A DNA stretch of 64,000 bases from Coprobacillus sp. CAG:698 (GTDB lineage: Bacteria > Bacillota_I > Bacilli_A > ML615J-28 > CAG-698), in NCBI GenBank assembly GCA_000431235.1, contig HF988734.1, positions 155,848 to 219,847 of the forward strand. Reading direction: 5' to 3'. Every line of letters begins with the position of its first letter. Position 1 is the stretch's first letter. Made by a program: the position numbers and the translations under genes. Positions 7,584-38,801 of this stretch are shown here, one piece after another. The notes under the pieces were generated by a model, which worked only from the letters and a program-made list of their open reading frames with translations, was not told where the DNA came from and made no database searches.

Positions 7584-7740
7584 AATAATCACCTATATAG
7601 ATATATATGATTGTCTGTTTTGATTTATGAAGAAACATCCACTTAAAATGACATTTTTTAATAATTATATAACAAGTTTTAAAAATAATGCTTTTATTTA
7701 AAACAAAAATGTGGTACAATTATGTAAAGTGGTGATTATA

Positions 7741-8844
7741 ATGAGATATAGAATTGAAAAAGATAGATTAGGCGAGAAAACGATTGCTCAAGAAGCTTAC
7801 TATGGAATAGCTACAGATCGTTCGAAAGATGCCTTCCAATTAACAAAACATGGCTTATCAAGACAAATGATTAAGGCTTTAGCCTTAGTTCAAAAAGTAG
7901 TTGTTAAGACAAATTGCAAAATGGGATTACTCAACAAAAAGGAAGCTGAAGCTTTACAGTTAAGTTGTGATGAAATTCTTAATGGTAAATTACATGGTCA
8001 ATTCATAGTTGATGTTGTTCACGATGGTTATGGCTATGGAATGAATGCAAATTGTGTTGAAGTAATAACTAATAGAGCCAATGAAATGTTAGGCGGTAAA
8101 AAAGGTTCTCTTTCACCAATTTCTATTGATAAAGTAACATTATATGAAAATGTTAATGAAATAAGTATTTTAGTTGGTAAAGTTGCTTTAGTTAAACTAA
8201 CGAAGAAATTAATTGCTGAGTGCAAAAAAACATATAATACTTTATATACATTTCTAGAAAACAATAAGAGTAAAGAAAATACCTTAGTTTACAATCAACT
8301 TAAGTCTACAGCTGAGATTTTAGAAAGAGATACAAAGAGAATAGATAAAGCTATTCCTTCTGTACTCCAAGTAAGTTATGGCGAAAATGTACCTGAGAAT
8401 ATAAAAGAAAATTACTTAAAAGCTTTTATTGATTGCTTAAATAGTGAAGTAACTGAAAAATATGTTTTATCAGAAAACTACCTTTCAACAAGCAACAATT
8501 TAGATTGTTTTATGTATATATCAACACTTGTGAAAGACTTGATGGTTAATTTTTCACGTTTAATGAGTAACTTATACAAATTATCAGAAAATGATATGAT
8601 GCATTTCCCAAGCATTCAAGATGTAGATAAATCTTCAAATAAATTGATATTATCATTTGTAAAACAAGTATCCTTCTACATAGTTGGAAACGATATGACA
8701 GTTTCTCGTGCTGTTGAGGAGGGAGAATTAGATGATAATTACTACTTACCTATTATTTATGCTTCTCTTCATGAAAGTATTAATTTGGTTAGAAGAACAA
8801 TTAGAACTGTAAAAGAAAAAATATTTGAAGTATTAGATATATAA
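7741..8844 (+). CDS. Fumarase/aspartase (class II lyase) homolog lacking catalytic motifs — probable pseudoenzyme
   Basis: The N-terminal ~170 aa align residue-by-residue with FumC/AspA ('RIEKDRLGE…YYGIATDRS…IKALALVQKVVVKTNCKMGLL…VDVVHDGYGYGMNANCVEVITNRANEMLGG'). The SSND motif and the GSSxMPxKxN SS-loop are absent, and the protein is only ~367 aa. Confidence 0.6.
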   Translation: MRYRIEKDRLGEKTIAQEAYYGIATDRSKDAFQLTKHGLSRQMIKALALVQKVVVKTNCKMGLLNKKEAEALQLSCDEILNGKLHGQFIVDVVHDGYGYGMNANCVEVITNRANEMLGGKKGSLSPISIDKVTLYENVNEISILVGKVALVKLTKKLIAECKKTYNTLYTFLENNKSKENTLVYNQLKSTAEILERDTKRIDKAIPSVLQVSYGENVPENIKENYLKAFIDCLNSEVTEKYVLSENYLSTSNNLDCFMYISTLVKDLMVNFSRLMSNLYKLSENDMMHFPSIQDVDKSSNKLILSFVKQVSFYIVGNDMTVSRAVEEGELDDNYYLPIIYASLHESINLVRRTIRTVKEKIFEVLDI

Positions 8845-8962: not shown

Positions 8963-9781
8963 CTATAATAAATATTTAAATACTACAAGAACATCATAGT
9001 AGTTTTTAGCGCTATAAGCAATAGTATCACTATCAATCATTTTAACACCAGGGAAGAATGAAGCTCTATAAGCGTTGTTATGATCTTTGTATTGGATTTT
9101 AACGTCGAAATGTTTAGGCATTTTTACGATGTTTTCTTTACCGCACTTCAAAACAGCTTCTTTAGCAGCATTTTCAATTTTTTTAATTGTAACATTTGGA
9201 TGCTCAGAAATTACAGCACAATGTAAACCAGTTTTTGAAGCAACAGTTTCGATGTTTTCATTTATTGCTTTTACTTGTTCTGTTAAGTTTTTATCACCAC
9301 TTAAGAATGCCACAGGAACATTAAGGTAAGAGGCATATAAACTATTGATGTTAAATTCACTTACGATTTCATCATTGATTGTAACCTGGAATAAGCGTGA
9401 AGAATTCATTGTATGAGAAAGTGAGTTACCTTGTGAACGTGAAGCACTATGATAGCCTACAAACATTACGCAATCAAATGTTTCATCTAGTCCAGCCATC
9501 ATTGAGCATACGCCGCCTTCCCAGCCTCTTAATAGCTTAACACACTCAGGTAAATCCAATATATCTAAGTTACGAGCACTATCATGAGCATCCTTGATAA
9601 CAATTTCAGTTGCTCCAGCAGCGATTGCACCACGACAAGCTGCATTTACTTCTCTTTGAAGTTCTTTTTTGAATTCTTGATATCTGGGGCTTTCTGCTTC
9701 TGTTTCATCCCAGTTGCAAATACCATTAATACCTTCAATGTCAACACTCATGAATACTTTTTTGCCTTTTGTATTTTCCAT
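8963..9781 (-). CDS. dppA: D-aminopeptidase DppA-like, peptidase family M55
   Basis: 'MSVDIEGINGI…GATEIVIKDAHDSARNL…MFVGYHS' is typical of M55 D-aminopeptidases; a GGAGG RBS precedes the start. Confidence 0.75.
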   Translation of the reverse strand: MENTKGKKVFMSVDIEGINGICNWDETEAESPRYQEFKKELQREVNAACRGAIAAGATEIVIKDAHDSARNLDILDLPECVKLLRGWEGGVCSMMAGLDETFDCVMFVGYHSASRSQGNSLSHTMNSSRLFQVTINDEIVSEFNINSLYASYLNVPVAFLSGDKNLTEQVKAINENIETVASKTGLHCAVISEHPNVTIKKIENAAKEAVLKCGKENIVKMPKHFDVKIQYKDHNNAYRASFFPGVKMIDSDTIAYSAKNYYDVLVVFKYLL

Positions 9782-16886: not shown

Positions 16887-17005
16887 TGGGATCTATGTTT
16901 AGGTCTCTGTATTCAATACTAGGCAGTGAACTAGGTCAGGTCGTGACTGAAGCAGCCTTAAGCTTTCCCTGGCATGTGGATATGGAGACTTAAGCATTAG
17001 ATCCT
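16887..17005 (+). ncRNA. ffs: Signal recognition particle RNA (small, 4.5S-type)
   Basis: A GGTTATAAT −10 box at 16874–16882 precedes it. The 5' end (GGGATCTATGTTTAGGTCTC) pairs with the 3' end (GGAGACTTAAGCATTAGATCC). The apical 'CAGGTCAGGTCGTGACTGAAGCAGCC' matches the conserved SRP domain IV (helix 8) motif, and a T-run follows. The tadA–SRP RNA synteny is as in Bacillus. Confidence 0.7.
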
Positions 17006-17028
17006 TTTTTTGGAAAATGAGGTTAATA

Positions 17029-18009
17029 ATGGAAAATAGTATAAAAGATTTAATAAAAGGTAAAGTTGTTGTTGCTCCTTTAGCTGGTTATACTAATCTT
17101 GCATATCGAAAAATTATGAAAGAACATAAAGCTAGTTTACTATATACAGAAATGGTTAGTGCCAAAGGTTTAATTTTTGATAACGAACAAACATTAGAGT
17201 ACATAAAATTAAGCGGAACAGAACATCCAATTAGTGTTCAGTTATTTGGCGGAAACATAGAAGATATGGTTAAAGCAACTAAAATAGTATGCGAAAAGTC
17301 AAAACCAGATATTATTGATATAAATATGGGATGCCCAATAAAAAAGGTTCTTAAGCAAGGTGCTGGATGTGAATTATTGCAAGACCCTGAAAAAGTTTAT
17401 AATCTTGTAAGAAGCGTCAAAGAAGCATCAACAGTTCCTGTAAGTGTAAAGATTAGAGCTGGTATTGATCACAATCATATTAATTGCGTAGAAATTGCTA
17501 AGGCTTGTGAGAGAGCTGGTGCTAGTTTAATCGCCATACATGGACGAACAAAAAGTGATATGTATACGGGAAAGGCTAATCTTGATTACATTAAAGAAGT
17601 TAAGGAAAATGTTTCAATTCCTGTAATTGGTAATGGTGATATAAAATCAGTTGAAGATGCTATTAAGATGCTTGAATATACAAAATGTGATTATGTGATG
17701 ATTGGAAGAGGATCATTAGGTAATCCATGGCTTATCGAATCAATTGCAAATTATTTCGAGGGAAAAGAAAAAGTTATTCCAACACCTTTAGAAAGGGTTG
17801 CTATGGTAAAATATCATTATGAAGAATTAAAGAAATTAAAAGGAGAACGTATAGCTTTACTAGAAATGCGTTCTATGGCTTCATTCTATTTAAAGACAAT
17901 AGATAATATAAAGAAATATCGAATTAAACTAAATGATATAACAAACGAAAAATCTTTTTATGATTTGTTAGATGAAATAATAGAAACATTAAATAATAAG
18001 GATGAATAG
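17029..18009 (+). CDS. dusB: tRNA-dihydrouridine synthase
   Basis: 'VVAPLAGYTNLAYRKIM' and 'NMGCPIKKV' Dus family motifs; the start was chosen after a GAGGT RBS. Confidence 0.85.
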   Translation: MENSIKDLIKGKVVVAPLAGYTNLAYRKIMKEHKASLLYTEMVSAKGLIFDNEQTLEYIKLSGTEHPISVQLFGGNIEDMVKATKIVCEKSKPDIIDINMGCPIKKVLKQGAGCELLQDPEKVYNLVRSVKEASTVPVSVKIRAGIDHNHINCVEIAKACERAGASLIAIHGRTKSDMYTGKANLDYIKEVKENVSIPVIGNGDIKSVEDAIKMLEYTKCDYVMIGRGSLGNPWLIESIANYFEGKEKVIPTPLERVAMVKYHYEELKKLKGERIALLEMRSMASFYLKTIDNIKKYRIKLNDITNEKSFYDLLDEIIETLNNKDE

Positions 18010-18012
18010 ATT

Positions 18013-20202
18013 ATGAAAACAAAAACAATGAATGTTATTGATAATAAATTATATATGGGTAGTTTCATGTTAGAAGAAGTTGCTAAGAAATATGGCACAC
18101 CGCTTTATGTTTATGATGAAGTACATATTAAAGATAAAATAGATAAATACAAAAAATCATTTATAAGTAATAAACTTAATTGCCAAGTTGTTTATGCTTC
18201 GAAAGCATTTATCTGCCCGCATTTATGTAATATTCTTAAAGAAAGAAATATATTCATTGATGCTATTAGCATTGGTGATTTATATCTATTAAAGAAATCT
18301 AATTATCCAATGTCAATGGTTGTTCTTCATGGCAATAATAAGTCTATTGAAGAATTAACATTTTCAGTAACTGAAAATGTTGGTTATATTGTTGTTGACA
18401 ACTTACAAGAACTAAAGAAATTAGAAAAAATCGCAACTGAAATGCACAAAACTGTAAAAACATTATTCCGTATTAATCCTGGCATTGAAGGACATACTCA
18501 TGCTTTCGTTGAGACATCTCTATTAGATTCAAAGTTTGGTGAATCAATGTTTGATAAACCTTTATTAGATGAAATATTTACCATATATAAAAATAGTAAG
18601 TATTTAGTTCTTGATGGATTTCATAGTCATATAGGCTCATCAATTACAAGTGTAGATGTATATTTAGCTCTTGCAAAAAAACTAATAAGTTTTATGGAAG
18701 AAGTAAAAGACCAATATGGATTTAATTTTAAAACATTAAATCTTGGAGGCGGATTCGGAATCAAATATTTAGATAGTGATCCTGAGGTTGATATTGAAGG
18801 ATTTCTTCCTGTACTTGTAAAAGAAGTTGAAGAAAGGCTTACAAAGTCAAATCTAGAAATCGAAAATGTTTTAATTGAACCGGGAAGAAGTATAGTTGGT
18901 GACGCAGGAATAACACTATACACATGCGGTGGAGTAAAAAAAACATATGCTGGCGTTGAATATTTATTTATCGATGGTGGAATGGCTGATAACCCACGTT
19001 TTGCCTTATATGGTGCTAAATATACATTTGCTAATGCTTCACGATATGTTGATCAAGAAACTATTTATAACATTGCTGGCAAGTGCTGTGAAAGCGGAGA
19101 TATGATTGCCAAACAGGTAAGCTTACCAAAAGCAAAAATCGGAGATACAATTATAACCTATTGTACGGGAGCATATTGCTTTACAATGTCAATGAACTAT
19201 AATGGACTTGCTCGCCCAGGAGTAGTTTTCATTGATAATGATAGAATTAAAGAAGTTGTTAGAAGAGAATCAAAGGAGGATTTAATAAAAAATTATATTA
19301 TGGAAAAAGATATAAAGATATTTGATACACATAGTGATATGTTATATGATTTAGATCGTAAGCAAAAACGAGGAATTGAACATCAATTTGAAAATTTCCA
19401 TGTGAAACAGTTAAAGAATAGCGTTATAACTGGTGGTATATGGACAATGTATTCTCCTGATGAATTTGATTTAATCGAAGGACTAAAGAATGCCTTAAGG
19501 CAAATACATATGGAATATCTTCCTGGATTTAAAGTAATCTTAGGATTAGAAGGATTAAGAAATCTAAAGAAAGTTGAAGATATAGATATAATCTACAATA
19601 TGGGTTTCCGTCATGCGATGGTAACTTGGAACGAAGCTAATGAATATGCTACAGGAGCAAAATCTGACCCTCAAAGAGGTATAACTTTAAAGGGAAAACA
19701 ATTATACAAAAGAATGCAAGAATTAGGAATGATTATTGATTTAGCTCATCTAAATGAAAAGAGTTTTTATGAAGCATTAGAAATTGTTGATAAAAATATA
19801 ATATATTCACATGGATTATGTAAAGCTTTATGTGATCATCCTCGTAACTTAACAGATGACCAAATGAGAGCCTTAAAGAAGGTTGATGGATTATTTGGAT
19901 TAACACTTGCTAATAACTTTGTAAGTAAAGATGAAGAAAAACAAGACTTAGAGCATTTCTTAGATCATGTTATCCATGCAAAAGAAATAATGGGAATTGA
20001 TAACTTGTGTTTTGGATTTGATTTTATGGACTATCAACCAGAATTTCCAAATTCAAATATTAAAGAAGTTCCAGATGCTACAAAAGCATATCGCATAATT
20101 GATGGATTAAGATCACGTGGATTTAGTGAAGAAGAAATAGAAAAGATTTGTTATTCAAACTTTGTAAACAGATATAAAGATAAAATTATGTTAGGTAAAT
20201 AA
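18013..20202 (+). CDS. lysA: Fusion protein: diaminopimelate decarboxylase (N) + M19 membrane-dipeptidase-like domain (C)
   Basis: Residues 1–~420 carry 'GTPLYVYDE', PLP-lysine 'YASKAF', 'GGGFGI', 'EPGRSIVG' and 'CESGD' of LysA. Residues ~430–729 ('FDTHSDMLYDL…') resemble renal-dipeptidase (M19) family proteins. It is a single uninterrupted 729-aa frame. Confidence 0.8.
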   Translation: MKTKTMNVIDNKLYMGSFMLEEVAKKYGTPLYVYDEVHIKDKIDKYKKSFISNKLNCQVVYASKAFICPHLCNILKERNIFIDAISIGDLYLLKKSNYPMSMVVLHGNNKSIEELTFSVTENVGYIVVDNLQELKKLEKIATEMHKTVKTLFRINPGIEGHTHAFVETSLLDSKFGESMFDKPLLDEIFTIYKNSKYLVLDGFHSHIGSSITSVDVYLALAKKLISFMEEVKDQYGFNFKTLNLGGGFGIKYLDSDPEVDIEGFLPVLVKEVEERLTKSNLEIENVLIEPGRSIVGDAGITLYTCGGVKKTYAGVEYLFIDGGMADNPRFALYGAKYTFANASRYVDQETIYNIAGKCCESGDMIAKQVSLPKAKIGDTIITYCTGAYCFTMSMNYNGLARPGVVFIDNDRIKEVVRRESKEDLIKNYIMEKDIKIFDTHSDMLYDLDRKQKRGIEHQFENFHVKQLKNSVITGGIWTMYSPDEFDLIEGLKNALRQIHMEYLPGFKVILGLEGLRNLKKVEDIDIIYNMGFRHAMVTWNEANEYATGAKSDPQRGITLKGKQLYKRMQELGMIIDLAHLNEKSFYEALEIVDKNIIYSHGLCKALCDHPRNLTDDQMRALKKVDGLFGLTLANNFVSKDEEKQDLEHFLDHVIHAKEIMGIDNLCFGFDFMDYQPEFPNSNIKEVPDATKAYRIIDGLRSRGFSEEEIEKICYSNFVNRYKDKIMLGK

Positions 20203-20203
20203 A

Positions 20204-21277
20204 TTGAAAAACGAAGAACTAAACAAAATATTACTTGACGAAGTCGAAAAAGGAACATTTCCTGGAGCTACATATGCGCTAGTTAGTGAATTCGGAACAT
20301 TTTATGGCGCAGTTGGATTTAAATCTTTGTACCCAACTAAAGAGACAAATAGTTTGGATACATTATATGATATGGCTTCTTGTACAAAAGTTATTTGTAC
20401 AACAACTTGTATATTTAAATTAATGGAGCAAGGGAAAATTAGATTATTTGATAGTGTTTCTATGTATTTACCTAAATTTAAACATACAGACATATTAATA
20501 TGGGATTTAATGACTCATACATCTGGCCTTCCTGCTGGATTGGGCGGAGTAACAAAAATTAAATCACGTGAGGAAGCTTTAGAAAAGCTTTACGCAACAG
20601 AAACAGTTTATCCTAAGAATTCGAAAATATTATATTCTGATTTAGGATATGTTCTTTTAGGACTTGTCATTGAGAGCATAAGCGGATGTTCATTAGATGA
20701 ATATGCAAGAATTAATATTTTTGAACCATTGGAAATGTTTGACACAACTTTTAAACCAAAAGATAAAGAAAGGTGTGCTCCAACAGAAGAACGTAATGAT
20801 GATATTGTCAAAGGTATTGTTAGAGGACATGTTCATGATGAGTTATCTTACATCTTAGGTGAAGTTAGTGGTCATGCTGGTTTATTTAGTACTGCTAGTG
20901 ATATACAACATTTTATTGAAATGGTTCTAAACAATGGTATCTATAATAATAAGAGAATACTTTCAAGAGCTACTATAGATCTAATGTTCACTCCACAAGT
21001 TGAAGAAAAAAAAGGTGTTGCCTTAACGCTAAATACAAGGGGTTTAGGATGGATAGTGCAAGGTGATTACTGCTCTGCTGGAGATCTTGCAAGTAAAGAA
21101 ACAATTCTACACACAGGATTCACGGGAACAAATGTTTTTATTGATAGAATCAATAAAGTAGGATTTACTCTTCTATCTAATAGAGTTCATCCAACAAGAA
21201 ATAATACAAAGATTATCCCATTTAGAGGAAGACTTGGAAATTACATAATAGCTAATTTTGGAGGAAGAAATAAATAA
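20204..21277 (+). CDS. Serine hydrolase, beta-lactamase/PBP-like (class C-type fold)
   Basis: 'SCTKV' S-x-x-K active-site motif near residue 60 and overall AmpC/DD-peptidase-like length. Apparent TTG start with no clear RBS, possibly translationally coupled. Confidence 0.65.
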   Translation: MKNEELNKILLDEVEKGTFPGATYALVSEFGTFYGAVGFKSLYPTKETNSLDTLYDMASCTKVICTTTCIFKLMEQGKIRLFDSVSMYLPKFKHTDILIWDLMTHTSGLPAGLGGVTKIKSREEALEKLYATETVYPKNSKILYSDLGYVLLGLVIESISGCSLDEYARINIFEPLEMFDTTFKPKDKERCAPTEERNDDIVKGIVRGHVHDELSYILGEVSGHAGLFSTASDIQHFIEMVLNNGIYNNKRILSRATIDLMFTPQVEEKKGVALTLNTRGLGWIVQGDYCSAGDLASKETILHTGFTGTNVFIDRINKVGFTLLSNRVHPTRNNTKIIPFRGRLGNYIIANFGGRNK

Positions 21278-21282
21278 ATAAT

Positions 21283-22269
21283 ATGAATAATATAACTCTT
21301 AAGCCTTTTTCAAGAGAATACACAGAAAAAGTCGTTGACTTATGGAATAAAAATGCTGCTTGTAAGACTATTTACGCAGAACTAACAATTGAAGAGTTTA
21401 AAGATAAATTCTATAATAATCCTAATTATAAGGATGAAGGCAGTATACTTGCTTTTGATGGTGATTTATTAGTTGGATTTGGGAATGCTATTTATTATTT
21501 GGATTCAAATCCAGAAACTAGTCCTGCTTATATTAGTATGATCGTTGTTGAGGAAAGTTATCAAAGACATGGCATTGGCACAATGATACTTAAATCACTA
21601 GAAAACTATTTACGTAGTGAAGGAAGAAAATATATAAGAAATTATTTCGGATGTCCAATTAATTTGAAATGGTATGTTCCTGGTTATTATAAGCATGAAC
21701 ATTTAGGTGCTCCTGCAGTGCCATATAATACACCTATTTATTATCTATTCCTTGCTAATAACTATTATTCAGATGGACAACAAGATGGATTTCATATCGA
21801 TTTAACAAAATTTACTATGCCTGAAGTTGTTGTTAACAAAATAAAAGAAAACGAAAAAGATGGATATACAATAACAATTTATGATGAAAAATTGCATCAT
21901 GGATTTGATGAAATGTTTGATGCACTTCAAAACGAAGGCTTTCGAAGAACGGTTCATCGTGTTTTAGAAAATGATAGACATGCAAAAATCGTAATAGCCC
22001 AAAAAGATGGTGAAATACTTGGCTTTACAGGACCAGTTAAAACAGAACCAACTGGAAGAGGCTCATTAGGAGGCGTTGCAATCCATCCAAAAGCTCAAAA
22101 AAGAGGTTTAGGTAAAACAATGTTCTGTTACTTATGTTTAAAATCAAAAGAAAATGGAGCTAAGTTTATGACTTTGTTTACTGGTTCAGAAAACAGAGCA
22201 CGTAACATCTACTTACACGCTGGACTTAAAATTGTACAATCATTTAATATAATGAGGAAGGAATTATAA
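21283..22269 (+). CDS. Tandem-GNAT N-acetyltransferase
   Basis: Two acetyl-CoA binding motifs ('QRHGIGTMILKSLENYL' and 'QKRGLGKTMFCYLCL'). Confidence 0.65.
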   Translation: MNNITLKPFSREYTEKVVDLWNKNAACKTIYAELTIEEFKDKFYNNPNYKDEGSILAFDGDLLVGFGNAIYYLDSNPETSPAYISMIVVEESYQRHGIGTMILKSLENYLRSEGRKYIRNYFGCPINLKWYVPGYYKHEHLGAPAVPYNTPIYYLFLANNYYSDGQQDGFHIDLTKFTMPEVVVNKIKENEKDGYTITIYDEKLHHGFDEMFDALQNEGFRRTVHRVLENDRHAKIVIAQKDGEILGFTGPVKTEPTGRGSLGGVAIHPKAQKRGLGKTMFCYLCLKSKENGAKFMTLFTGSENRARNIYLHAGLKIVQSFNIMRKEL

Positions 22270-22270
22270 A

Positions 22271-23206
22271 ATGCTTTTAAAGAAACTATCAAAAGGAGAC
22301 ACTATAGGTATTATTAATCCTGCTTTTAAAAATCCTCAAGATGTTTATACAAGATATAGTAAAATGATAGAGACAATTGAAAGCAAAGGTTATAAAATAA
22401 AGTTTGGAAAAACTTTTACACTTGAAAATGGATATTTAGCTGGAACAGATGAAGAGCGTGCTAATGATTTAAATGAAATGTTTAAAGATGAAACAGTAAA
22501 AGCTATTATCTGTATGCGTGGTGGATATGGAGCTAGTCGAATGGTTGATTTAGTAGATTATGCTTTAATAAAGGATAATCCTAAAATTATATGTGGATTT
22601 AGTGATATAACAGTTTTACTAAATGCTATTTATAAAAAAACTGATATGCCAACCATTCATGGATTAGTGTCTTTATATATTGGTTCAAAATCATGTGATG
22701 AATTTTCCGAAAATGATTTTTGGAAAGTACTTACTGAAAACCAAAAAGGAAGAGTATTAGAAAATCCAAATAAAGATGCGAAAACATTAATACCAGGTAA
22801 AGTAACTGGAAAACTTGTGGGCGGAAACTTAAGCTTAATAGCTACGCTTGTCGGTTCTGAATATGAAGTTGATTTTACTGATAAGATTGTTTTCATTGAA
22901 GAAGTAACTGAAGAACCTTATCAAATAGATAGATACTTTTCTTCCATAAAACTAAGAAAAATGTTTGAAAAAGCAAAAGGATTTGTTTTTGGATACTTTT
23001 CAGAATGTGAACCAAGTGAAGGAAGGAAAGGAACACAATCATATTTAGATATAATAAAAGATTATGTTGGAAACCTTAACAAACCAACAATATATGATTT
23101 TGCTTGTGGACACAGTTTCCCTTTCATTAATCTTCCAATTGGTACATTAGTAACTTTAGATGCAAATAATAAAAAAATCATTATAGAGGAGGAAATCTAT
23201 GAATAG
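22271..23206 (+). CDS. LD-carboxypeptidase (peptidase S66, LdcA/MccF family)
   Basis: 'ICMRGGYGASRMVDLVDY' S66 signature region; 311 aa. Confidence 0.75.
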   Translation: MLLKKLSKGDTIGIINPAFKNPQDVYTRYSKMIETIESKGYKIKFGKTFTLENGYLAGTDEERANDLNEMFKDETVKAIICMRGGYGASRMVDLVDYALIKDNPKIICGFSDITVLLNAIYKKTDMPTIHGLVSLYIGSKSCDEFSENDFWKVLTENQKGRVLENPNKDAKTLIPGKVTGKLVGGNLSLIATLVGSEYEVDFTDKIVFIEEVTEEPYQIDRYFSSIKLRKMFEKAKGFVFGYFSECEPSEGRKGTQSYLDIIKDYVGNLNKPTIYDFACGHSFPFINLPIGTLVTLDANNKKIIIEEEIYE

Positions 23207-24518
23207 ACCTATTAAAAGATTTTGCTTTGATGGCAATATAAAATATTATGGCACTGATAAAGAAGTCTTAATAAGTGATGATTATAAAGAAAAAGACGAA
23301 GAGTTACGTGGAGTTTGGTTCTCTACAGTAGCTAATATTGATATTCCAAAAATGACTGATACAGGCGTAGAAAGTCAAGAAAAATTAAAAGAATATTTAC
23401 AAGATGTAATTAAAACGTTAAAGGAATATCATATGAATACTATAATATTCCAAGTGAGACCAGTTAATGATGCGCTATATGATTCTGCACTAAATCCATG
23501 GAGTAGCGTTCTAACAGGTAAAGAAGGAACAAATCCTGGATTTGATGTTTTTGGTTATTTTATGGATGAAGCAAAGAAGAATGGCATAGAAGTGCATGCT
23601 TGGATAAATCCATACAGAGCTGGAAGAGTAAACATTAAAGAAGCAAATATGACTAAAGAACAATTCTTAGAAACTTTAGCTCCAACGAACTTTGCAAGAC
23701 TTCATCCTGAATGCACTATTCTAACAAAGGAAAACAAACTTTTGTTAGATCCAGCAAATGAAAAAGTTATGGAATTTGTTAGTGATAGCATAATTGAAAT
23801 TGCTAGTAAATATGATATTAAAGCAGTGCACATTGATGATTATTTTTACCCATATGAGGATATCGCCGATGAGAACGAAGAAGAAAAGAAGAAAAAAGCA
23901 GGATTTGAAAAAACTAGTGATTTCCGTCGTGACAATGTAAATAAAATGATAAAACTTATTCATGATAAATTACAAAAACTAGATAAAAAAGTTGAATTTG
24001 GAATTAGTCCATTTGGAATTTATAGAACTAATTCAAAGTTCTATGAAAACAAAGATGATGAAGGTGCATGGGAACTTGGATCAAATAATAGTTCAGGATG
24101 CCTAACAAACTATAAAGGCTTATATGCTGATATTTATAAATGGATGGAAGAAGGCTGGATAGACTACGTAGTACCTCAAAATTATTTTGATATGGATAGC
24201 ACAAAACTTGATGATAAAAACAATGAAAAATGTTTAGTTAGATATGCGGATTTAGCTGACTGGTGGAGTTGGGCAGCTAAGAAAACAAATACAAAACTAT
24301 ACATGGGCCAAGCTTTTTATCGCTATAGCAAAGATGGTGCATGGGCAAATCCAGAAGAAATTCCTAATCAATTAAAGTACAATCAAAACTTAGATAATGT
24401 TTTAGGAACAATATTCTTTACATATAAAGATTTTCATAGAGATGATTGTGAAAGTATTATTAAGGGCAAAGAACTCCTTAAAAAGTTATGGACAAAGACT
24501 CCTAAACATGTGAAGTAA
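23199..24518 (+). CDS. Glycoside hydrolase-like family 10 (GHL10/YngK-like) protein
   Basis: 'MNTIIFQVRPVNDALYDS…GIEVHAWINPYRAG' is typical of the GHL10/DUF187 TIM-barrel family. Confidence 0.6.
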   Translation: MNRPIKRFCFDGNIKYYGTDKEVLISDDYKEKDEELRGVWFSTVANIDIPKMTDTGVESQEKLKEYLQDVIKTLKEYHMNTIIFQVRPVNDALYDSALNPWSSVLTGKEGTNPGFDVFGYFMDEAKKNGIEVHAWINPYRAGRVNIKEANMTKEQFLETLAPTNFARLHPECTILTKENKLLLDPANEKVMEFVSDSIIEIASKYDIKAVHIDDYFYPYEDIADENEEEKKKKAGFEKTSDFRRDNVNKMIKLIHDKLQKLDKKVEFGISPFGIYRTNSKFYENKDDEGAWELGSNNSSGCLTNYKGLYADIYKWMEEGWIDYVVPQNYFDMDSTKLDDKNNEKCLVRYADLADWWSWAAKKTNTKLYMGQAFYRYSKDGAWANPEEIPNQLKYNQNLDNVLGTIFFTYKDFHRDDCESIIKGKELLKKLWTKTPKHVK

Positions 24519-24523: not shown

Positions 24524-24566
24524 ATAACTTCTTGATACTAGAAATGGTATTAAGAAGTTTTTTTAA
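24524..24566 (+). terminator. Rho-independent terminator
   Basis: AACTTCTT…AAGAAGTT stem followed by TTTTTTT. Confidence 0.55.
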
Positions 24567-25377: not shown

Positions 25378-25401
25378 ATAAATTAAAGGAGAAATAAAAC
25401 T

Positions 25402-25953
25402 ATGGAAGTTTATGTAACTGGAAAAAAGATGGCTAACAATGTTGAAGTGCTTTGTTATAAAATGGATTCATTTGAAATAGATAAGAAGACAAAAATAATT
25501 GTCAGCAAAGGATATCGTGCACTTGTGTATATTGACAATAAATATTATGATACATTAAAAACAGGAACATATGAAGAATTCAAAAAAGAAAGAGGAAAAA
25601 GATGTGACATCTATACATTTGTAGAAGTAGATAATAAAATTGAATGTAAATATGGAGTTGGTAAATCTGGAAAAGTTTTAAACTCATATGGTAATTATGC
25701 AGTAACAATTATGGGAAGTTTCCAAGGACTTGAAAATTTAGTAAAGGAATTTAACGTGGAAACTAGAGATATTGATGCAATGGCAATTAGAGATAGAATT
25801 AATCCAATAATTCCAGAAGCATTTTCAAAACCAGAAGTTGTTGATGCAACAACTGCAAAGCAAGTATTAAAAGATACATTAACTAGTAAGTTAGCTACAT
25901 TCGGTTTAAAGTTAGAAGAAATTAACATTGAAGGAATCAATATGGAGGCATAA
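25402..25953 (+). CDS. Hypothetical protein (first gene of the Zn-ribbon protease/TIR island)
   Basis: 183 aa, good RBS, no confidently recognised domain. Confidence 0.4.
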   Translation: MEVYVTGKKMANNVEVLCYKMDSFEIDKKTKIIVSKGYRALVYIDNKYYDTLKTGTYEEFKKERGKRCDIYTFVEVDNKIECKYGVGKSGKVLNSYGNYAVTIMGSFQGLENLVKEFNVETRDIDAMAIRDRINPIIPEAFSKPEVVDATTAKQVLKDTLTSKLATFGLKLEEINIEGINMEA

Positions 25954-25954
25954 A

Positions 25955-26659
25955 ATGGGATTATTTGGAAAAGATTATAAAGAAGAAGATCGTTTATATC
26001 GTATAAAAATTAGAGAAAGATTACTTGAAATACCTGGATTATTTGATTCACCATCATCAAGTAAAATCGTTGATAATGGACTTTGTGCTCCATACTTTAA
26101 AGTTACAAAATCCACTATTGAAATGGATGAAAAAATAGACGAATTATCTAAGAGTATTGCATCTGTAAAAACTGAAATACCTGGATCTCAAAAGGTATAT
26201 GAGGGATTACTTGTGGAAATGTTTACGTATCGTAATGATGAATCAAATGTTTGTAAGGGTAAAGAATTTGAACAACTTTGCAAAAACTGGGAAGTTGATA
26301 AAGCCATGTGCGAAGCAAAAATTAAAATAGAGAATTTAAAAAAGCAAAAAGCCGAATTAGACCCTAATGATTTATATTATAATATGAAAAGTAAAAAAAT
26401 TGATGATGATATAAAAAGTGAAGCCGATACAATTAAGAGATTGTTAGAGGTAATGTTCTTAAATGACAAGTATTTAGGAGTTGTTAAAAAATCTGATATT
26501 GAAAATACAGTTAATGAGTGCGCTAATTCTACATCAAAAGACTTTGCTAAACAAGTTAACTTATTACGTAAGAAACGTGTTAAAAACGATTTAGAAAAGA
26601 ATCGTAAAGAAGATCAATACAAGTTATATTCTAATATGCTTGATGATTCTGATAACTAA
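25955..26659 (+). CDS. Coiled-coil hypothetical protein
   Basis: Starts MGLFGKDY after a GGAGG RBS and overlaps the upstream stop; K/E-rich and predicted helical. Confidence 0.4.
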   Translation: MGLFGKDYKEEDRLYRIKIRERLLEIPGLFDSPSSSKIVDNGLCAPYFKVTKSTIEMDEKIDELSKSIASVKTEIPGSQKVYEGLLVEMFTYRNDESNVCKGKEFEQLCKNWEVDKAMCEAKIKIENLKKQKAELDPNDLYYNMKSKKIDDDIKSEADTIKRLLEVMFLNDKYLGVVKKSDIENTVNECANSTSKDFAKQVNLLRKKRVKNDLEKNRKEDQYKLYSNMLDDSDN

Positions 26660-26662
26660 TGT

Positions 26663-27043
26663 ATGATAATAAAAATAGGTGAAAATACATATACTCAATC
26701 CGATATTCAGGAACTCAGAACGAGCATATGTAAGTTAGAAAATGAAATAAGTGAATGTGATAATACTATTGAATCTAAGATTTCAAAAGAAGAATTAAAA
26801 GCAGCTAAAGCTAAGAAAAAACAACTTCTCAAAGCTCTTAAAGAACTTAAAAAAGCAGAAAGAAGATTAGCTATTGTGTCAGATAAATTCAAAGAAAAAC
26901 CTTTTGAAAGTTACTATGATGACAAAGAAGTTGAGGAAATAATCAAAAAGCAAGCTGATAAATTAGTAGACGAAGAAGTGGAAAAAAATCGTAAAGAAAA
27001 ATCTTATAATCAATTCATTGATATGATTGATGATAAAAAATAA
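26663..27043 (+). CDS. Coiled-coil hypothetical protein
   Basis: 126 aa, highly charged with heptad-like repeats. Confidence 0.35.
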   Translation: MIIKIGENTYTQSDIQELRTSICKLENEISECDNTIESKISKEELKAAKAKKKQLLKALKELKKAERRLAIVSDKFKEKPFESYYDDKEVEEIIKKQADKLVDEEVEKNRKEKSYNQFIDMIDDKK

Positions 27044-27056
27044 ATGGAGAAACATT

Positions 27057-28307
27057 ATGCCTAAAAAATGTAAAGTATGTTCTGGCGAAAAGTACGTTCC
27101 ATGTACTGGAAGACCTGGATATGTAGAATGTATGTTCTGTGGAACTGTGTATTCAAATGATGAAATTGAAGAAACGGTTTCTGAAGAAAAGAAAAGTATA
27201 GATTTAATAAATACAATCGGAAAAGGTGTTTGTGAGATTGTTTGGACAGTTGAGAATTGCATGTACCAAGGAACAGGTTGGTACATTGGAAATGGCAATG
27301 TAATTACAAATGCTCATGTTGTTTTGGATGGCCAAGGATATCTTGGACATAAGTTAAATTGTAAATTTACTTATTTAGGTAAGGATGCAGTTTACATCGG
27401 TGAAGCAGAAAAACTTGATCAAGTAAATGATGTGGCTGTAGTAAAGATTAATGATGATGAACGTTTAAAACCTCATGCAGTTAAACTTGCTGAAAACCCA
27501 CAATATACAATTGGGCAAACAGTATATACTATTGGTAACACTGTTGGAAGAGGATTATCTCCTCAAAAGGGTATGATATCTCGCTTGGATGATATGGAGT
27601 TTAGTGAAGGTTGGAAAAAGCTAAACGCTGTACCATTGCTTCGTACAACACTAAATATCGACCATGGAAATAGTGGTGGACCATTAATTAATTCCAAAGG
27701 TGAAGCAATAGGATTAATGAGCAGTGGTCACGTTCAAGAATCTGAAGTGTCAATTTATTCGCAAACAGGAAGAATGGATAATGTTGTAGGTGTTGGTAGT
27801 ATTAAAGTTGATGAATTAAGTATTGCTGTTAGACTTATATGTGTAAAGAATTTATTGAATTCAAAAGAAATATATAAAGAAAAACAAAGACCACAAATAG
27901 AAGCACCTAAAAATGATGGTTTAGTAGACGTTCTTTTGACTTTGCAAATATCATACCTACCAAGTTTATTCTTAGAAAATTTTGATGTGTTTTCAAAAAT
28001 GATTCAAAGTCAAGAACTATTCTGTACTGTAGTTACCCAACTAGCACAAAATGTAGGGGTTAAATATGAATGTTCAGAAGATGATTTTATAATTAAGCCA
28101 TGTGCTAATGGAAGAAGTGTAATGATATTGTATCCAGATATGGTTATTAACGATAACTTATCAATTGTTCAAGTATTTTCACTTACAAAGAAGAAAGTAT
28201 ATGGGGTATTACCAGCAGGTATTCTTGTAGAGATAAAAGATGGACAATTACACAAAATACAAGACGTAGATTTAAATAACTTAGAAAACATAATTAATAA
28301 TTTATAA
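27057..28307 (+). CDS. Zn-ribbon + trypsin-like (S1/HtrA-fold) serine protease + unknown C-terminal domain
   Basis: N-terminus 'CKVCSGEKYVPCTGRPGYVECMFCGT'. Catalytic triad context 'VITNAHVV' (His), 'DVAVVKIN' (Asp) and 'GNSGGPLIN' (Ser). A ~150-aa C-terminal extension has no known motif. Confidence 0.7.
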   Translation: MPKKCKVCSGEKYVPCTGRPGYVECMFCGTVYSNDEIEETVSEEKKSIDLINTIGKGVCEIVWTVENCMYQGTGWYIGNGNVITNAHVVLDGQGYLGHKLNCKFTYLGKDAVYIGEAEKLDQVNDVAVVKINDDERLKPHAVKLAENPQYTIGQTVYTIGNTVGRGLSPQKGMISRLDDMEFSEGWKKLNAVPLLRTTLNIDHGNSGGPLINSKGEAIGLMSSGHVQESEVSIYSQTGRMDNVVGVGSIKVDELSIAVRLICVKNLLNSKEIYKEKQRPQIEAPKNDGLVDVLLTLQISYLPSLFLENFDVFSKMIQSQELFCTVVTQLAQNVGVKYECSEDDFIIKPCANGRSVMILYPDMVINDNLSIVQVFSLTKKKVYGVLPAGILVEIKDGQLHKIQDVDLNNLENIINNL

Positions 28308-28327
28308 GTAGAAAGGAGTAATAAAGT

Positions 28328-28852
28328 ATGAATGAAATGCTTAAAGCACTTAAAGAATACTTAGATAACGGAATAATTAGAGTTTTATGTAACCCAATAA
28401 CAAATTATTCATGCGTATCTTTTCATGATATAGAACATGGAGTTTATGTTAATACTGGATTAGGAGCATCTAGTATTCGTAGTGTTGGTTCATTACTTAA
28501 AATATATGAAAGTAAGAATAGTTTGACACCTAAAAAAATTTGTGAAATAACAAAAATTCCTGAAAGTGCATATGATAGAATTAAAAATCAATCTACTGAT
28601 TTTGATATTTATGATAAAAATCAAATATGTGTTCTTGCAATATGCTTTAAGCTAACACCTACACAAATTAGAAGGTTTTTGAATGCAGCTCATATTTTAT
28701 TACAACCACTATCATATTCTTTTGATGCAGCTTTTGATTTTTATATTAATAATTGGCATTACACAATAGATAACAAAGAAAACATTAATAACTTTTTAAA
28801 ATGTTGTAAGTATTCAGAAGAATATTTAGAAAAATGTTTGGGGTTCCACTAA
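28328..28852 (+). CDS. HTH-containing hypothetical protein
   Basis: 'TPKKICEITKIPESAYDRIKNQSTDFDIYDKNQICVLAICFKLT' resembles an XRE/Cro-type helix-turn-helix. Confidence 0.4.
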   Translation: MNEMLKALKEYLDNGIIRVLCNPITNYSCVSFHDIEHGVYVNTGLGASSIRSVGSLLKIYESKNSLTPKKICEITKIPESAYDRIKNQSTDFDIYDKNQICVLAICFKLTPTQIRRFLNAAHILLQPLSYSFDAAFDFYINNWHYTIDNKENINNFLKCCKYSEEYLEKCLGFH

Positions 28853-29874
28853 TGGCAAACATAAGTAAGTTATTAAGAATAATAGAAAAGCTAAAAAAAG
28901 AAGAAGGTGCTTTATTTGAAAGGTATCCTGATGAAAAATCAATAGATAAAGTTATTGATGAATTCACAACAATTATTACTAGAAGACAAGACGTAGAAAA
29001 ACCCGTAAATAGACTAGAATTAATTAAGCTAATTCTTGATCTAAAAGTGTTGGGTTTAGAAAATGTGAAGAAAATGTATGAAGTTTGTGGATATCCATTT
29101 AATTACAAAAAAACACTTGGTGATTATTATGATGAAGCTTTAAGAATATTTGTTGAAAATAATCTTTTTGATGGCAATCTCCCTGATAATTATCGATATG
29201 TTTACGAAATTAATAGCATTGATATTGTAGACAATTATGAGAAATATGAATATGTTTTAAAGAATATTATTTTAACACTTTACAAGATGAAATTTGGAAA
29301 AATAAATGGTGAGGAAGAACATCTTCTCTATAATCTTGCAATGCTTGAAGATAGATTTCTAGATACTGATCAAAATATAAAAAGATTACTTTATCCTAAT
29401 TGTAAAGAAATGGATGCCTTTAGAAATTATTTACTAAAATATGATGAAGAAAATCAAGGAACATATGCTCCTGAATATCAAGAAATAATACACGTTATAT
29501 TATTAACTATTTTAGATAATTTTTATGAAGACCGAAAAACATGTAAGATGTTTAGAAGAGTAATAAGTGATGTTCCAAGAAGTGTTTATAAAAAAATGTT
29601 TATGGATAAACTATTTGTTACTGAAATGTTTTCATATAATTACTTTGAATCATTTTATAAAAAAGTATTCTTAGATGATGACTATCAAGAAAAGGAAAAA
29701 GCATTAATAGATTTATTTACGATAATATTTACTAATCTTAAGACAATAAATGTGCCTATTGAAATTCCCCAAACAGTAGCTATGAAAATTAATTATAAAT
29801 TCTTAGGGCTAGAAGTTAAAGAAATGGTTAATCACTTTAAAAAAATTAAACATGAAATTGATAGAAGATTATAA
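28852..29874 (+). CDS. Alpha-helical hypothetical protein (possibly TPR-like); start overlaps the upstream stop (TAATG)
   Basis: ~340 aa, all-helical composition, translationally coupled to the HTH gene. Confidence 0.4.
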   Translation: MANISKLLRIIEKLKKEEGALFERYPDEKSIDKVIDEFTTIITRRQDVEKPVNRLELIKLILDLKVLGLENVKKMYEVCGYPFNYKKTLGDYYDEALRIFVENNLFDGNLPDNYRYVYEINSIDIVDNYEKYEYVLKNIILTLYKMKFGKINGEEEHLLYNLAMLEDRFLDTDQNIKRLLYPNCKEMDAFRNYLLKYDEENQGTYAPEYQEIIHVILLTILDNFYEDRKTCKMFRRVISDVPRSVYKKMFMDKLFVTEMFSYNYFESFYKKVFLDDDYQEKEKALIDLFTIIFTNLKTINVPIEIPQTVAMKINYKFLGLEVKEMVNHFKKIKHEIDRRL

Positions 29875-29885
29875 ACAAATTAAAT

Positions 29886-29904
29886 TAGGCCACTGGCCTT
29901 TTTT
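29886..29904 (+). terminator. Short GC hairpin (AGGCC ACT GGCCT) + TTTTTT
   Basis: Located after the helical protein gene and before the TIR gene promoter (TGTATAAT at 29953–29960). Confidence 0.45.
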
Positions 29905-30002
29905 AAAAGAAGTTTTAACTTGAAGATTTTTGTAGACAAAAACATAAAATAGTGTATAATATACTTATAAAAATAAGTCAATCACAAAGAAAGGTGAAAC
30001 TC

Positions 30003-30893
30003 ATGGAAGAAACAAAATCATTAATATGTACAAGATGTGGATCACATTATTTAGAAAAACAAAGTGAAACTGAATATAAGTGTTTAAGTTGTGATGCTAT
30101 AATTACTAAGGAAAAAGCCTTAGATTTTGAAGAACAATATAAAAAACTTCAAGCTGAAGGTAAGGCATTTGATATAGCTAACTTAAGAAGTTTAGTTAGA
30201 AAAGCACTAGAAGGGCATATTGATAAAGATTCACTTATTAAGTATTCACAAGATATATTAAGGGTTTTACCAGGAGATGTGCTTTCACTATTTTACATTA
30301 AATTTGCTAATCGTATAATTTATCCTAGTGATTATGAATATTATTTAAATCTTCTTTTGAAAGAAGCAACACAAACAGAAATAGATGAAATAATAGATAT
30401 AATAATAACTAATGCCAGATTTAGAGAAAAAGAACAGGTAATTAACATAATAAATAAGTTCTATAAAGGAAGAGAAGATAAACTTATAGAGCTAGAAAAA
30501 GCTTTAAAACAAAGAACGAAAGAAATAGATTTATTTAGTGATATACCTAGAGATATATTTATTTGTCATTCTTCACTAGATAAAGATAAAGTAAATGAAA
30601 TATTAAAGACGTTAGAAGAAGATGGAAATACATGCTGGATATCATCACGTAATATTCCATGGGATAGTGATAACTATTGGTTAAATATTGAAAAAGCAAT
30701 AAAATCATGTAATATCTTCTTATGCTTAAATAGTGTAAATACAATGCAAAGCAATGACTGCAGACGTGAAGTAGAAATAGCGAGCACTTTAAACAAGAAA
30801 AGAATAGAGTATAAGTTAGATGAATCTAGAGATATAACATTATTTAAACAGTTCTTTACAGGACAATGGTATCAATACAATGCAAAGCAATGA
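30003..30893 (+). CDS. Zn-ribbon + TIR-domain protein (C-terminus truncated by a frameshifting tandem duplication)
   Basis: N-terminus 'CTRCGSHY…CLSCDA'. C-terminal TIR motifs 'DIFICHSSLDKDKV…CWISSRNIPWDSDNYW…EKAIKSC…REVEIA' include the conserved Glu. The frame ends 4 codons into the second repeat copy. Confidence 0.7.
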   Translation: MEETKSLICTRCGSHYLEKQSETEYKCLSCDAIITKEKALDFEEQYKKLQAEGKAFDIANLRSLVRKALEGHIDKDSLIKYSQDILRVLPGDVLSLFYIKFANRIIYPSDYEYYLNLLLKEATQTEIDEIIDIIITNARFREKEQVINIINKFYKGREDKLIELEKALKQRTKEIDLFSDIPRDIFICHSSLDKDKVNEILKTLEEDGNTCWISSRNIPWDSDNYWLNIEKAIKSCNIFLCLNSVNTMQSNDCRREVEIASTLNKKRIEYKLDESRDITLFKQFFTGQWYQYNAKQ

Positions 30894-31015
30894 TTGCAGA
30901 CGTGAAGTAGAAATAGCAAGCAGTCTAAACAAGAAAAGAATCGAATATAAGTTAGATGATGCTAGAGATATAACATTATTTAAAAACTTCTTTACAGGAC
31001 AGTGGATAACAAATA
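30744..31015 (+). repeat. Diverged direct tandem duplication, 2 × 136 bp (~93% identity)
   Basis: Copy 1 is 30744–30879 and copy 2 is 30880–31015. The ATGCAAAGCAATGA(C/T)TGCAGACGTGAAGTAGAAATAGC… block is seen twice, with a period of 136 = 3n+1. Confidence 0.85.
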
Positions 31016-31245
31016 TTAATGACTTATTAGATAAAGTATATGACTTAAAACACAAAGAAACAAAGTTAAAAGAAGAAGCTAAAAAGCTCTTAAAAAGCAA
31101 AGAATATGAAAAAGCCAAAGAAGTATTTTTAGAAGTAAATGATGATGAAGCAAAAAAATATATAGTGTTATGTAATACTTTAATTTCCTCAACAAAGTTA
31201 ATGAAAAATAGCATGTATGAAGAAGCTAAAGCAAAACTATTATAA
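30880..31245 (+). CDS. Detached C-terminal portion of the TIR protein (re-reads the duplicated segment in frame, then a helical tail)
   Basis: Starts with 'MQSNDCRREVEIASSLNKKRIEYKLDDARDITLFKNFFTGQW', nearly identical to the end of the TIR ORF, then continues into a 75-aa helical extension. Confidence 0.5.
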   Translation: MQSNDCRREVEIASSLNKKRIEYKLDDARDITLFKNFFTGQWITNINDLLDKVYDLKHKETKLKEEAKKLLKSKEYEKAKEVFLEVNDDEAKKYIVLCNTLISSTKLMKNSMYEEAKAKLL

Positions 31246-31272
31246 ATAGATGATATAATCTATACCAAAGAT

Positions 31273-33546: not shown

Positions 33547-33583
33547 ACAAGTAGCAATAAAAAGCACAACTTGTCTTTTTGTT
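33546..33583 (+). terminator. Rho-independent terminator (AGACAAGT…ACTTGTCT + TTTTT)
   Basis: 8-bp perfect stem directly after the stop of the repeat-domain gene. Confidence 0.55.
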
Positions 33584-38780: not shown

Positions 38781-38801
38781 TTAATTAGCTCTAAGGGTTA
38801 A

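Follow-up and report, generated by a model that had tools for sequence, protein, structure and literature searches.

A fused diaminopimelate decarboxylase and M19 dipeptidase from Coprobacillus sp. CAG:698 and its proposed role in cytoplasmic muropeptide salvage

Why a diaminopimelate decarboxylase should share one polypeptide chain with a dipeptidase is the question raised by an open reading frame (ORF) of Coprobacillus sp. CAG:698, a reduced-genome gut bacterium which is the namesake of the GTDB family CAG-698 within the order ML615J-28. The ORF resides in a stretch of 64,000 nucleotides (nt) of contig HF988734.1 (positions 155,848-219,847), referred to here as the window, from the start of which all coordinates are counted. 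It occupies positions 18013-20202 of the + strand and joins LysA, the decarboxylase of meso-diaminopimelate (meso-DAP), to a peptidase M19 (renal-dipeptidase-like) domain, the fused protein being termed LysA~M19. The explanation favoured here, to which a probability of about 0.6 is assigned, is that LysA~M19 is bifunctional and belongs to a cytoplasmic muropeptide salvage operon in which meso-DAP would finally be converted to lysine. It comprises the predictions that the N-terminal half is a true pyridoxal 5'-phosphate (PLP)-dependent meso-DAP decarboxylase, that the C-terminal half is a binuclear-zinc M19 dipeptidase, and that the fusion arose from adjacent, translationally coupled lysA and M19 genes via the loss of a stop codon.

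The fused reading frame and its two halves

The frame begins with an ATG, contains no internal stop codon and encodes 729 amino acids (aa), the length which a preliminary description of this DNA, made from the sequence alone, had stated; an identical database entry exists, CCY08209.1, named 'diaminopimelate decarboxylase [Coprobacillus sp. CAG:698]', and the protein is present on six contigs of up to 350 kb. Three Pfam domains were identified on the chain, i.e., Orn_Arg_deC_N (8.7e-43), Orn_DAP_Arg_deC (1.8e-14) and Peptidase_M19 (1.9e-61), and together with the lysA model TIGR01048, which scored above its equivalog cutoff, they bear out the joining of LysA to M19 that the same description had claimed. 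A chance origin of a 2.2-kb ORF with two such strong domains in DNA of 30% G+C is excluded. A search covering 5.8 billion proteins returned 101 clusters (90% identity) in which all three domains reside in one chain (686-739 aa, 51-99% identical to the query); the cluster of CCY08209.1 itself has 99 members, and all 15 of those listed are 729 aa long. Co-occurrence of the fusion in related genomes, which had been proposed for inspection, was found as well, as a scan of one genome per species turned up 24 more genomes with the fused ORF, which carry the labels Bacilli bacterium, Acholeplasmataceae, Mollicutes or 'uncultured Coprobacillus'. The probability that a missed stop codon or a frameshift has welded two ordinary genes together is thus negligible: separate genes do occur in some relatives, yet the 99 near-identical sequences come from many independent samples and the linker between both halves is in frame throughout. 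A sequencing error at the junction, a possibility which the preliminary description had raised itself, was consequently rejected on the basis of the exact database record and of the recurrence in the 101 clusters and 24 genomes.

An exhaustive HMMER search of 1.84 billion 50%-identity representatives returned one fused representative (P0014; P-numbers denote database proteins and L-numbers loci of relatives, as labelled in the analysis). As independent fusions would rank near the top of the HMMER list, the LysA-M19 architecture is restricted to one clade. Other long LysA proteins in this list are P0195, a LysA-DapF protein of 757 aa, and P0160, a Peptidase_C39_2-LysA protein of 636 aa, the latter being another combination of a peptidase with LysA in which the domain order is reversed. 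A paper on a LysA-dipeptidase fusion was not found in the literature, in line with the preliminary description, to whose author no such description was known, and the database naming of the fused protein mentions diaminopimelate decarboxylase only, so that its public name conceals the peptidase half.

The LysA half (aa 1-427, positions 18013-19293, + strand) was scored by TIGR01048 with 395.4 bits versus an equivalog cutoff of 297.9, whereby aa 10-427 cover model positions 6-415 of 417, and it matches LysA from M. tuberculosis (1HKV) with 2.9e-77 over aa 17-426. Within an alignment of 34 fused homologs which are 51-82% identical to the query, residues K64, H204/H206, G245-247, E289-R292, R329, Y333, C358-D363 and Y388 are invariant. 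Here, K64 is the PLP lysine, and the fold-type III motifs HxHxGS, GGG and EPGR are kept, aligning with those of M. tuberculosis LysA. Invariance also extends to C358-C359-E360-S361-x-D363 (the CESGD motif, read here as CCESxD) and to R329 and Y333 of the DGGxxDxxRxxLY loop, residues which, in the LysA structures from M. tuberculosis and M. jannaschii, hold the distal L-centre of free meso-DAP. Based on this, the LysA half most likely acts on free meso-DAP rather than on DAP within a peptide.

For the M19 half (aa 435-729, positions 19315-20199, + strand) the PF01244 match amounts to 208.4 bits versus a gathering cutoff of 26, which removes the earlier concern that the C-terminal domain might not belong to M19; the best-matching stretch covers profile positions 105-315 of 319, and the N-terminal third is divergent from the profile but retains the HxD motif. 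H440, D442, E513, H579, H600, R611 and D670 are invariant in the 34 fused homologs and align with the motifs of fungal GliJ and Listeria Lmo2462. In human DPEP1, the binuclear zinc site is formed by H20, D22, E125, H198 and H219, and R230 and D288 were reported to bind the substrate (PMC9305348). The five zinc ligands correspond to H440, D442, E513, H579 and H600, R611 of an H-P-R-N motif corresponds to R230, and D670 of a G-F-D-F motif to D288. The closest solved structure is that of Lmo2462 (3LU2/3NEH), and a TIM-barrel amidohydrolase fold was predicted with high confidence for the M19 half. T538-W539-N540 (nt 19624-19632) aligns with the T-H-N motif of GliJ, W539 replacing the histidine, and Lmo2462 possesses a Trp at this position too. 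The histidine of the GliJ motif is presumably the equivalent of DPEP1 His152, a second-shell catalytic residue; the exchange for Trp may point to an altered mechanism or specificity. H534 was considered as an alternative equivalent of His152 and rejected, as the GliJ alignment places W539 there. Bacterial M19 enzymes are said to prefer L-Xaa-D-Xaa dipeptides.

Both halves are connected by a short variable linker (aa 428-434, positions 19294-19314, + strand). Alignment of 25 fused proteins at this junction revealed the linker to be poorly conserved, to differ in length by a few residues and to be in frame, and its flanks to be conserved, with RRExxEDL closing LysA and K-x-FD-x-HSD opening the first strand of M19. 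In the AlphaFold2 model (mean predicted local distance difference test score, pLDDT, 89.4) both domains are confident and the linker has a pLDDT of ~72, while the predicted template modelling score (pTM) of 0.63 means that no confident inter-domain geometry is given. This points to two well-folded domains whose connection is flexible. Enzymes of the LysA and of the M19 type both form homodimers. In L013, L023 and L027-29, lysA and M19 are separate genes, each with stop codon, Shine-Dalgarno sequence and ATG, as exemplified by the junction AAAGGAGAGAAATAATG, in which stop and start codons overlap; further split pairs are L039/L040, L044/L045 and L047, and the 'stand-alone' LysA hit P0114 overlaps by 8 nt with a separate M19 gene of the same operon, P0122 and P0123 being arranged alike. 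Neighbour-joining trees of the LysA half and the M19 half are congruent, and the split pairs are found both basal (L013, L027-29) and nested beside the subclade of the window itself (L023, L039). Thus, both halves have evolved together, and switches between the fused and the split state took place repeatedly within the clade.

The operon and its counterparts in related genomes

The fused gene is followed on the + strand by four genes (20204-24518) for which all domain calls of the preliminary description were found to be correct by Pfam. Its claim that the fusion heads this cluster stands in so far as lysA~M19 is the first pathway gene, but the transcription unit probably begins upstream, at dus (tRNA dihydrouridine synthase, 17017-18009, + strand, PF01207 5.7e-87). 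This gene ends 3 nt before lysA~M19, is located upstream of lysA in 26 loci including the window and is probably co-transcribed; it is regarded as genomic context outside of the pathway. From dus through to the last gene of the cluster, the gaps between genes range from -8 to +5 nt.

The first of the four genes (20204-21277, PF00144 2.6e-50) encodes a serine hydrolase with beta-lactamase fold of 357 aa, which is 34% identical to E. coli YfeW/PBP4B (6e-52 over 344 aa) and possesses the SCTK (SxxK) and HTG motifs, the N-terminal ~45 residues of YfeW being missing; the PBP4B model NF002968 scored 172 bits, under its cutoff of 385. In E. coli, yfeW is the third gene of the murQ-murP-yfeW operon for N-acetylmuramic acid (MurNAc). 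Of the 30 loci with LysA plus M19, 29 have the beta-lactamase-fold gene next to the M19 coding region, the exception being L046, and the same adjacency is seen in L026, L034, L039 and L047.

It is followed by a tandem GNAT protein (21283-22269, 328 aa, two GNAT domains), a candidate glucosaminide N-acetyltransferase resembling GlmA, which is reportedly a cell-wall recycling enzyme. The best PDB matches are the GlmA entries 5KF1/5KGA (2.3e-9 with the single sequence, 2.1e-13 with a family profile); both proteins comprise 328 aa with their halves in the same order, whereby a good alignment is obtained for the N-terminal half and a weak one (8 bits) for the C-terminal half. 5KF1 is described as GlmA, a glucosamine/glucosaminide N-acetyltransferase (PMC10936415).

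The subsequent gene (22271-23206) encodes an LdcA-like S66 LD-carboxypeptidase of 311 aa, in which both S66 domains (PF02016 2.6e-41, PF17676 3.9e-33) are present and the triad motifs GFSD, acidic EEVTEEPY and GH are readable in the translation; the muramoyltetrapeptide carboxypeptidase model NF008424 scored 144 bits, under its cutoff of 378. The last gene (23199-24518, 439 aa, PF02638 6.6e-56) encodes a GHL10 glycan-cleaving enzyme which matches Cwp19 from C. difficile (5OQ2) with 5.4e-63 over aa 29-414. Cwp19 is a peptidoglycan lytic transglycosylase (PMC6016235), DigH being another GHL10 enzyme that cleaves peptidoglycan glycan, and unlike Cwp19 the GHL10 protein possesses neither a signal peptide nor wall-binding repeats. 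A terminator-like hairpin (24526-24559, + strand), consisting of a 15-bp stem followed by TTTTTAATTG, closes the operon 8 nt past the GHL10 stop codon.

As none of the cluster's enzymes in the window carries an N-terminal hydrophobic segment, the operon products are probably all cytoplasmic. Neither a lysine riboswitch nor any further RNA regulator was identified upstream by an Rfam scan, and a promoter scan was uninformative, with 64 sites seen versus 63.6 expected. The sole Rfam hit in the window is a small bacterial signal recognition particle RNA gene between tadA and dus (16900-16995, + strand, RF00169 48.7 bits versus a gathering cutoff of 40).

ORFs were clustered across 38 loci, and the resulting family counts include the window where it carries the gene: the beta-lactamase-fold protein was found in 32 loci, GHL10 in 29, a GH20-like protein of 627 aa in 27, a membrane-anchored substrate-binding protein (SBP; SBP_bac_1/8, ~1000 aa) in 26, the tandem GNAT in 25, LdcA in 22 and a PIG-L de-N-acetylase in 14. 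The GH20-like protein is similar to beta-N-acetylhexosaminidases and the PIG-L protein to BshB and diacetylchitobiose deacetylase; BPD_transp_1 permease genes come after the SBP gene in the relatives. The gene set is kept together in ~35 genomes, in one of them (L046) with another gene order. In this more divergent locus (35% G+C), the order is PIG-L, LdcA, LysA, three small genes, M19, two GHL10 genes, GH20 and SBP, the S66 gene being located directly upstream of lysA; a LytTR gene sits between LysA and M19. L047 (49% G+C) possesses a split lysA/M19 pair followed by the beta-lactamase-fold and GNAT genes. Overall, the linkage of lysA to M19 holds at identities as low as ~45% and in genomes with a G+C content of 25-49%, and its survival of both rearrangement and base-composition shift argues for a shared function rather than for inherited order. 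Upstream of dus, L008, L012, L014, L016, L021 and L024 carry one or more GH18 genes, whose products resemble chitinase or EndoS and contain an aBig_2 domain, and genes for ATPases of the ATP-binding cassette (ABC) type.

The proposed salvage route and competing explanations

The analysis establishes what the domains are, that their active sites are intact, that the gene association is conserved and that the fusion is real. On this basis a route can be proposed, in which the substrate of each enzyme, the order of the steps and any kinetic benefit of the fusion are inferred. Initially, muropeptides would be imported or recycled, in the relatives via the ABC system of sugar type. GHL10 would then cut the bonds between MurNAc and N-acetylglucosamine (GlcNAc), with GH20 taking off GlcNAc in the relatives, and the GlmA-like enzyme would re-acetylate glucosamine residues so that the glycan enzymes can act. 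Next, the PBP4B-like serine hydrolase may detach or trim the stem peptide, a step for which AmiE from B. subtilis, an exo-acting MurNAc-L-Ala amidase, provides a precedent; we presume AmiE to have a beta-lactamase fold as well. LdcA would strip the terminal D-Ala off the tetrapeptide, M19 would split an L-Xaa-D-Xaa bond, either in (L)-meso-DAP-D-Ala or in L-Ala-D-Glu, and LysA would finally decarboxylate the released meso-DAP to L-lysine. The fusion to LysA favours cleavage of meso-DAP-D-Ala, as this liberates meso-DAP, with L-Ala-D-Glu as the alternative. That trimming of DAP-containing muropeptides feeds lysine had already been proposed in the preliminary description, and the idea gains support from the matches to Cwp19, YfeW and GlmA, from the linkage in ~35 genomes and from the predicted biology of the lineage; the passage of meso-DAP from M19 to LysA is the step which we infer.

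A number of observations weigh against this salvage route. An enzyme for the gamma-D-Glu-meso-DAP bond was not identified in the cluster, hence the route to free meso-DAP is incomplete, and the PIG-L, GH20, SBP and permease genes of the relatives were found neither in the window (tblastn) nor within 10 kb beyond its ends. The fusion is not required, as ~10 related loci keep two translationally coupled genes, and the pTM lends no support to a fixed inter-domain geometry or to a channel. The M19 subfamily carries Trp at the position of the GliJ histidine, and its closest solved relative, Lmo2462, is uncharacterised; the substrates proposed for the M19 half are putative. Furthermore, the whole region including the housekeeping genes tdk, tadA and dus is syntenic in the clade, and since these unrelated genes are equally syntenic, part of the cluster's conservation is simple inheritance. 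Finally, L030 (10061-12577, from the wall-less Haploplasma modicum ATCC 29102) and L031 possess a stand-alone M19 gene followed by PIG-L and tandem GNAT genes, and LysA, the beta-lactamase-fold protein, LdcA and GHL10 were not found in the examined stretches of both loci. As M19 persists in H. modicum without LysA, its role may be nearer to amino-sugar than to DAP metabolism. A gene for an NAGPA-like secreted protein and a GH20 gene are located near M19 in these Acholeplasma-type loci.

Some of these observations would equally be expected if LysA served de novo lysine synthesis and had been fused incidentally, by loss of the stop codon at a TAATG junction, to an unrelated dipeptidase, an explanation which is judged unlikely. 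Fused and split states do alternate in the trees, the split junctions are only a few nt long so that fusion is mutationally easy, no fixed interface was predicted, neither a lysine riboswitch nor lysine-specific control was found, tdk, tadA and dus are just as syntenic as the cluster, and LysA has diverged more quickly than M19 (in L008, for example, 49% versus 69% identity of the halves). Incidental fusion does not, however, account for the linkage of lysA and M19 over the range of identity and base composition given above, nor for the reshuffled L046, where LysA is still found in the cluster, right after LdcA. Likewise, the Acholeplasma-type loci keep M19 in stretches where LysA was not found together with the beta-lactamase-fold protein, LdcA and GHL10, and the LysA-DapF protein P0195 shows that LysA fusions tend to mirror pathway links. 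Distinctly less probable is a cluster for the utilisation of amino sugars, chitooligosaccharides or host glycans, with the peptidases and LysA as bystanders. It would suit the SBP, which belongs to the sugar-type families, the resemblance of the PIG-L protein to diacetylchitobiose deacetylases and BshB and of the GH20-like protein to beta-N-acetylhexosaminidases, the GH18 genes upstream in several loci, and the wall-less Haploplasma, which keeps M19, PIG-L and GNAT with GH20 nearby. However, the GHL10 protein matches the peptidoglycan-specific Cwp19 with 5e-63, the S66 LdcA and PBP4B/YfeW-like families are tied to the peptidoglycan stem peptide, GlmA reportedly serves in cell-wall recycling, and the sole known substrate of LysA is, to our knowledge, a precursor of cell wall and lysine. 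In addition, the peptidoglycan backbone itself contains GlcNAc, so the sugar enzymes suit a glycan cluster and muropeptide salvage alike.

An involvement in antibiotic resistance was considered as well, with M19 either as VanX-like D-Ala-D-Ala dipeptidase or as hydrolase of carbapenems or other beta-lactams alongside the PBP-like protein. Mammalian DPEP1 hydrolyses carbapenems, and of the 34 loci that carry further cluster genes besides M19, 33 have the beta-lactamase-fold gene after the M19 region. DPEP1 was shown to bind the inhibitor cilastatin (PMC9305348). Nevertheless, the proteins of the operon appear to be cytoplasmic and the targets of beta-lactams are extracytoplasmic; LdcA, GHL10, the GlmA-like protein and LysA have no link to resistance, and van-type genes were not seen alongside them. 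Resistance is therefore regarded as highly improbable.

Muropeptide salvage, the explanation preferred here, is proposed to work like known cytoplasmic peptidoglycan recycling with a different enzyme set that ends in LysA. With muropeptide recycling in E. coli, which relies on AmpG or Opp import and on NagZ, AmpD, LdcA, MpaA, PepD and Mpl, it would share the cytoplasmic breakdown of imported wall fragments, an LdcA of the S66 family and a YfeW/PBP4B homolog. From the E. coli set of AmpG or Opp-MppA, NagZ, AmpD, LdcA and Mpl, however, the cluster has LdcA only, plus the YfeW homolog; AmpG or Opp-MppA, a GH3 NagZ, AmpD and Mpl were not found in the window or within 10 kb beyond its ends, and no MpaA was seen in the cluster. 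In contrast to E. coli, the glycan steps would be carried out by GHL10 and GH20, import in the relatives would proceed via the sugar-type ABC system with its giant anchored binding protein, and the apparent end product is lysine, formed via LysA, whereas E. coli re-ligates the tripeptide onto UDP-MurNAc. The murQ-murR-murP-amiE-nagZ-namZ system from B. subtilis resembles the proposed route in the stepwise, exo-acting removal of GlcNAc, peptide and MurNAc, and GlmA from C. acetobutylicum has a candidate counterpart in the tandem GNAT. The B. subtilis enzymes are secreted, whereas those of the cluster have no signal sequences; MurQ, MurP and NamZ are absent from the cluster, and LysA and M19 are not listed in the B. 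subtilis operon.

Known LysA fusions, i.e., aspartate kinase/diaminopimelate decarboxylase (NF006515) and LysA-DapF (P0195), likewise unite LysA with a partner enzyme that shares its metabolite pool, but their partners are biosynthetic enzymes of the DAP/lysine pathway, whereas a peptidase partner, as found here, implies that the DAP stems from catabolism or salvage. Compared to M19 family members such as human DPEP1, Streptomyces Sco3058, fungal GliJ and Listeria Lmo2462, the M19 half has the same predicted fold, the five metal ligands, the Arg and the Asp, but differs in being predicted cytoplasmic, ~295 aa long and fused to LysA, and in the Trp it shares with Lmo2462. Obligate scavenging of wall components, as in the MurNAc auxotroph Tannerella forsythia, is comparable in that a reduced-genome organism may rely on its neighbours' wall fragments, and muropeptide import via YejBEF-YepA in Agrobacterium in that an ABC importer may serve for uptake; both differ in their gene sets, and the salvage products proposed here include lysine. 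As MurA is present, CAG:698 does not share the MurNAc auxotrophy of Tannerella.

The wider window and the biology of the lineage

After GHL10 and a small ORF, where the relatives carry GH20, giant SBP and permease genes, the window contains a non-syntenic block (~25400-40000) which was probably inserted as a variable or defence island. It encodes a trypsin-like protease similar to the PADLOC RT-Protease domain (27027-28307), a ThsB-like TIR protein (29952-30893), a DUF6273 protein (31273-33546) and a 1672-aa MBG_2 surface protein (33762-38780). The genes further downstream at 45355-50507 (+ strand), which encode a LytTR response regulator, a GHKL sensor kinase and two fused ABC transporters, have the appearance of a module for peptide signalling or of bacteriocin type. 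A 1591-aa RHS-repeat protein (51918-56693, + strand) with a C-terminal Tox-REase-9 nuclease domain is a polymorphic toxin, and a small ORF after it (56707-57276, + strand) could encode an immunity protein. A homolog of the flagellin lysine-N-methylase FliB (62722-63729, + strand) scored 127 bits with NF038110 versus a cutoff of 85; no flagellar genes are in view. At the other end of the window, 16 kb from the fusion, a class I (archaeal-type) lysyl-tRNA synthetase is encoded (95-2116, + strand; TIGR00467 385 bits, with a C-terminal tRNA_bind domain), a type uncommon in Firmicutes. A short aspartase/fumarase-like protein of 377 aa (7711-8844, + strand) is encoded between the MurA gene and that of an M55 DppA-like D-aminopeptidase (8963-9781, - strand); the latter is syntenic in ~10 loci and could act on D-amino-acid peptides of the wall.

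The labels Acholeplasmataceae and Mollicutes among the relatives had suggested a wall-less scavenger. For CAG:698 this was rejected, as MurA (6336-7592, - strand) scored 400 bits with TIGR01072, above the equivalog cutoff of 393, YabP and YabQ are present, and a UppS-type prenyltransferase is encoded nearby. DAP-pathway genes were found neither in the window nor in the 10 kb on either side, which is the stretch that was examined. For RF39, ML615J-28 and part of RFN20, m-DAP-type peptidoglycan was predicted, along with gaps in precursor synthesis and a requirement for muropeptides obtained by scavenging (Field, Bowerman & Hugenholtz 2024), and the operon is a plausible candidate for the scavenging predicted in this lineage.

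A more far-reaching idea, which we put forward tentatively and regard as possible but doubtful, is that the operon, together with the ABC importer with giant SBP, the GH20 and the PIG-L of the relatives, constitutes the predicted, never identified scavenging system of 'cell-wall-intermediate' Bacilli (ML615J-28, RF39 and relatives). Lacking a complete de novo pathway for DAP or wall precursors, these would turn meso-DAP peptides from their neighbours' walls into lysine via LysA~M19 and re-use the amino sugars for their own thin wall, so that lysine supply and wall building would both hang on the peptidoglycan of other species. If the salvage model itself holds, cytoplasmic roles would be assigned to proteins of the GHL10 and PBP4B/YfeW types, about whose biology little is understood, and a physiological substrate to the Lmo2462-like M19 subfamily, for which structures without function have been available so far. 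A testable gene set would be at hand for how reduced-genome, Mollicutes-related gut Bacilli cope with incomplete wall-precursor synthesis. Finally, a route would lead from the neighbours' peptidoglycan to nutritional lysine.

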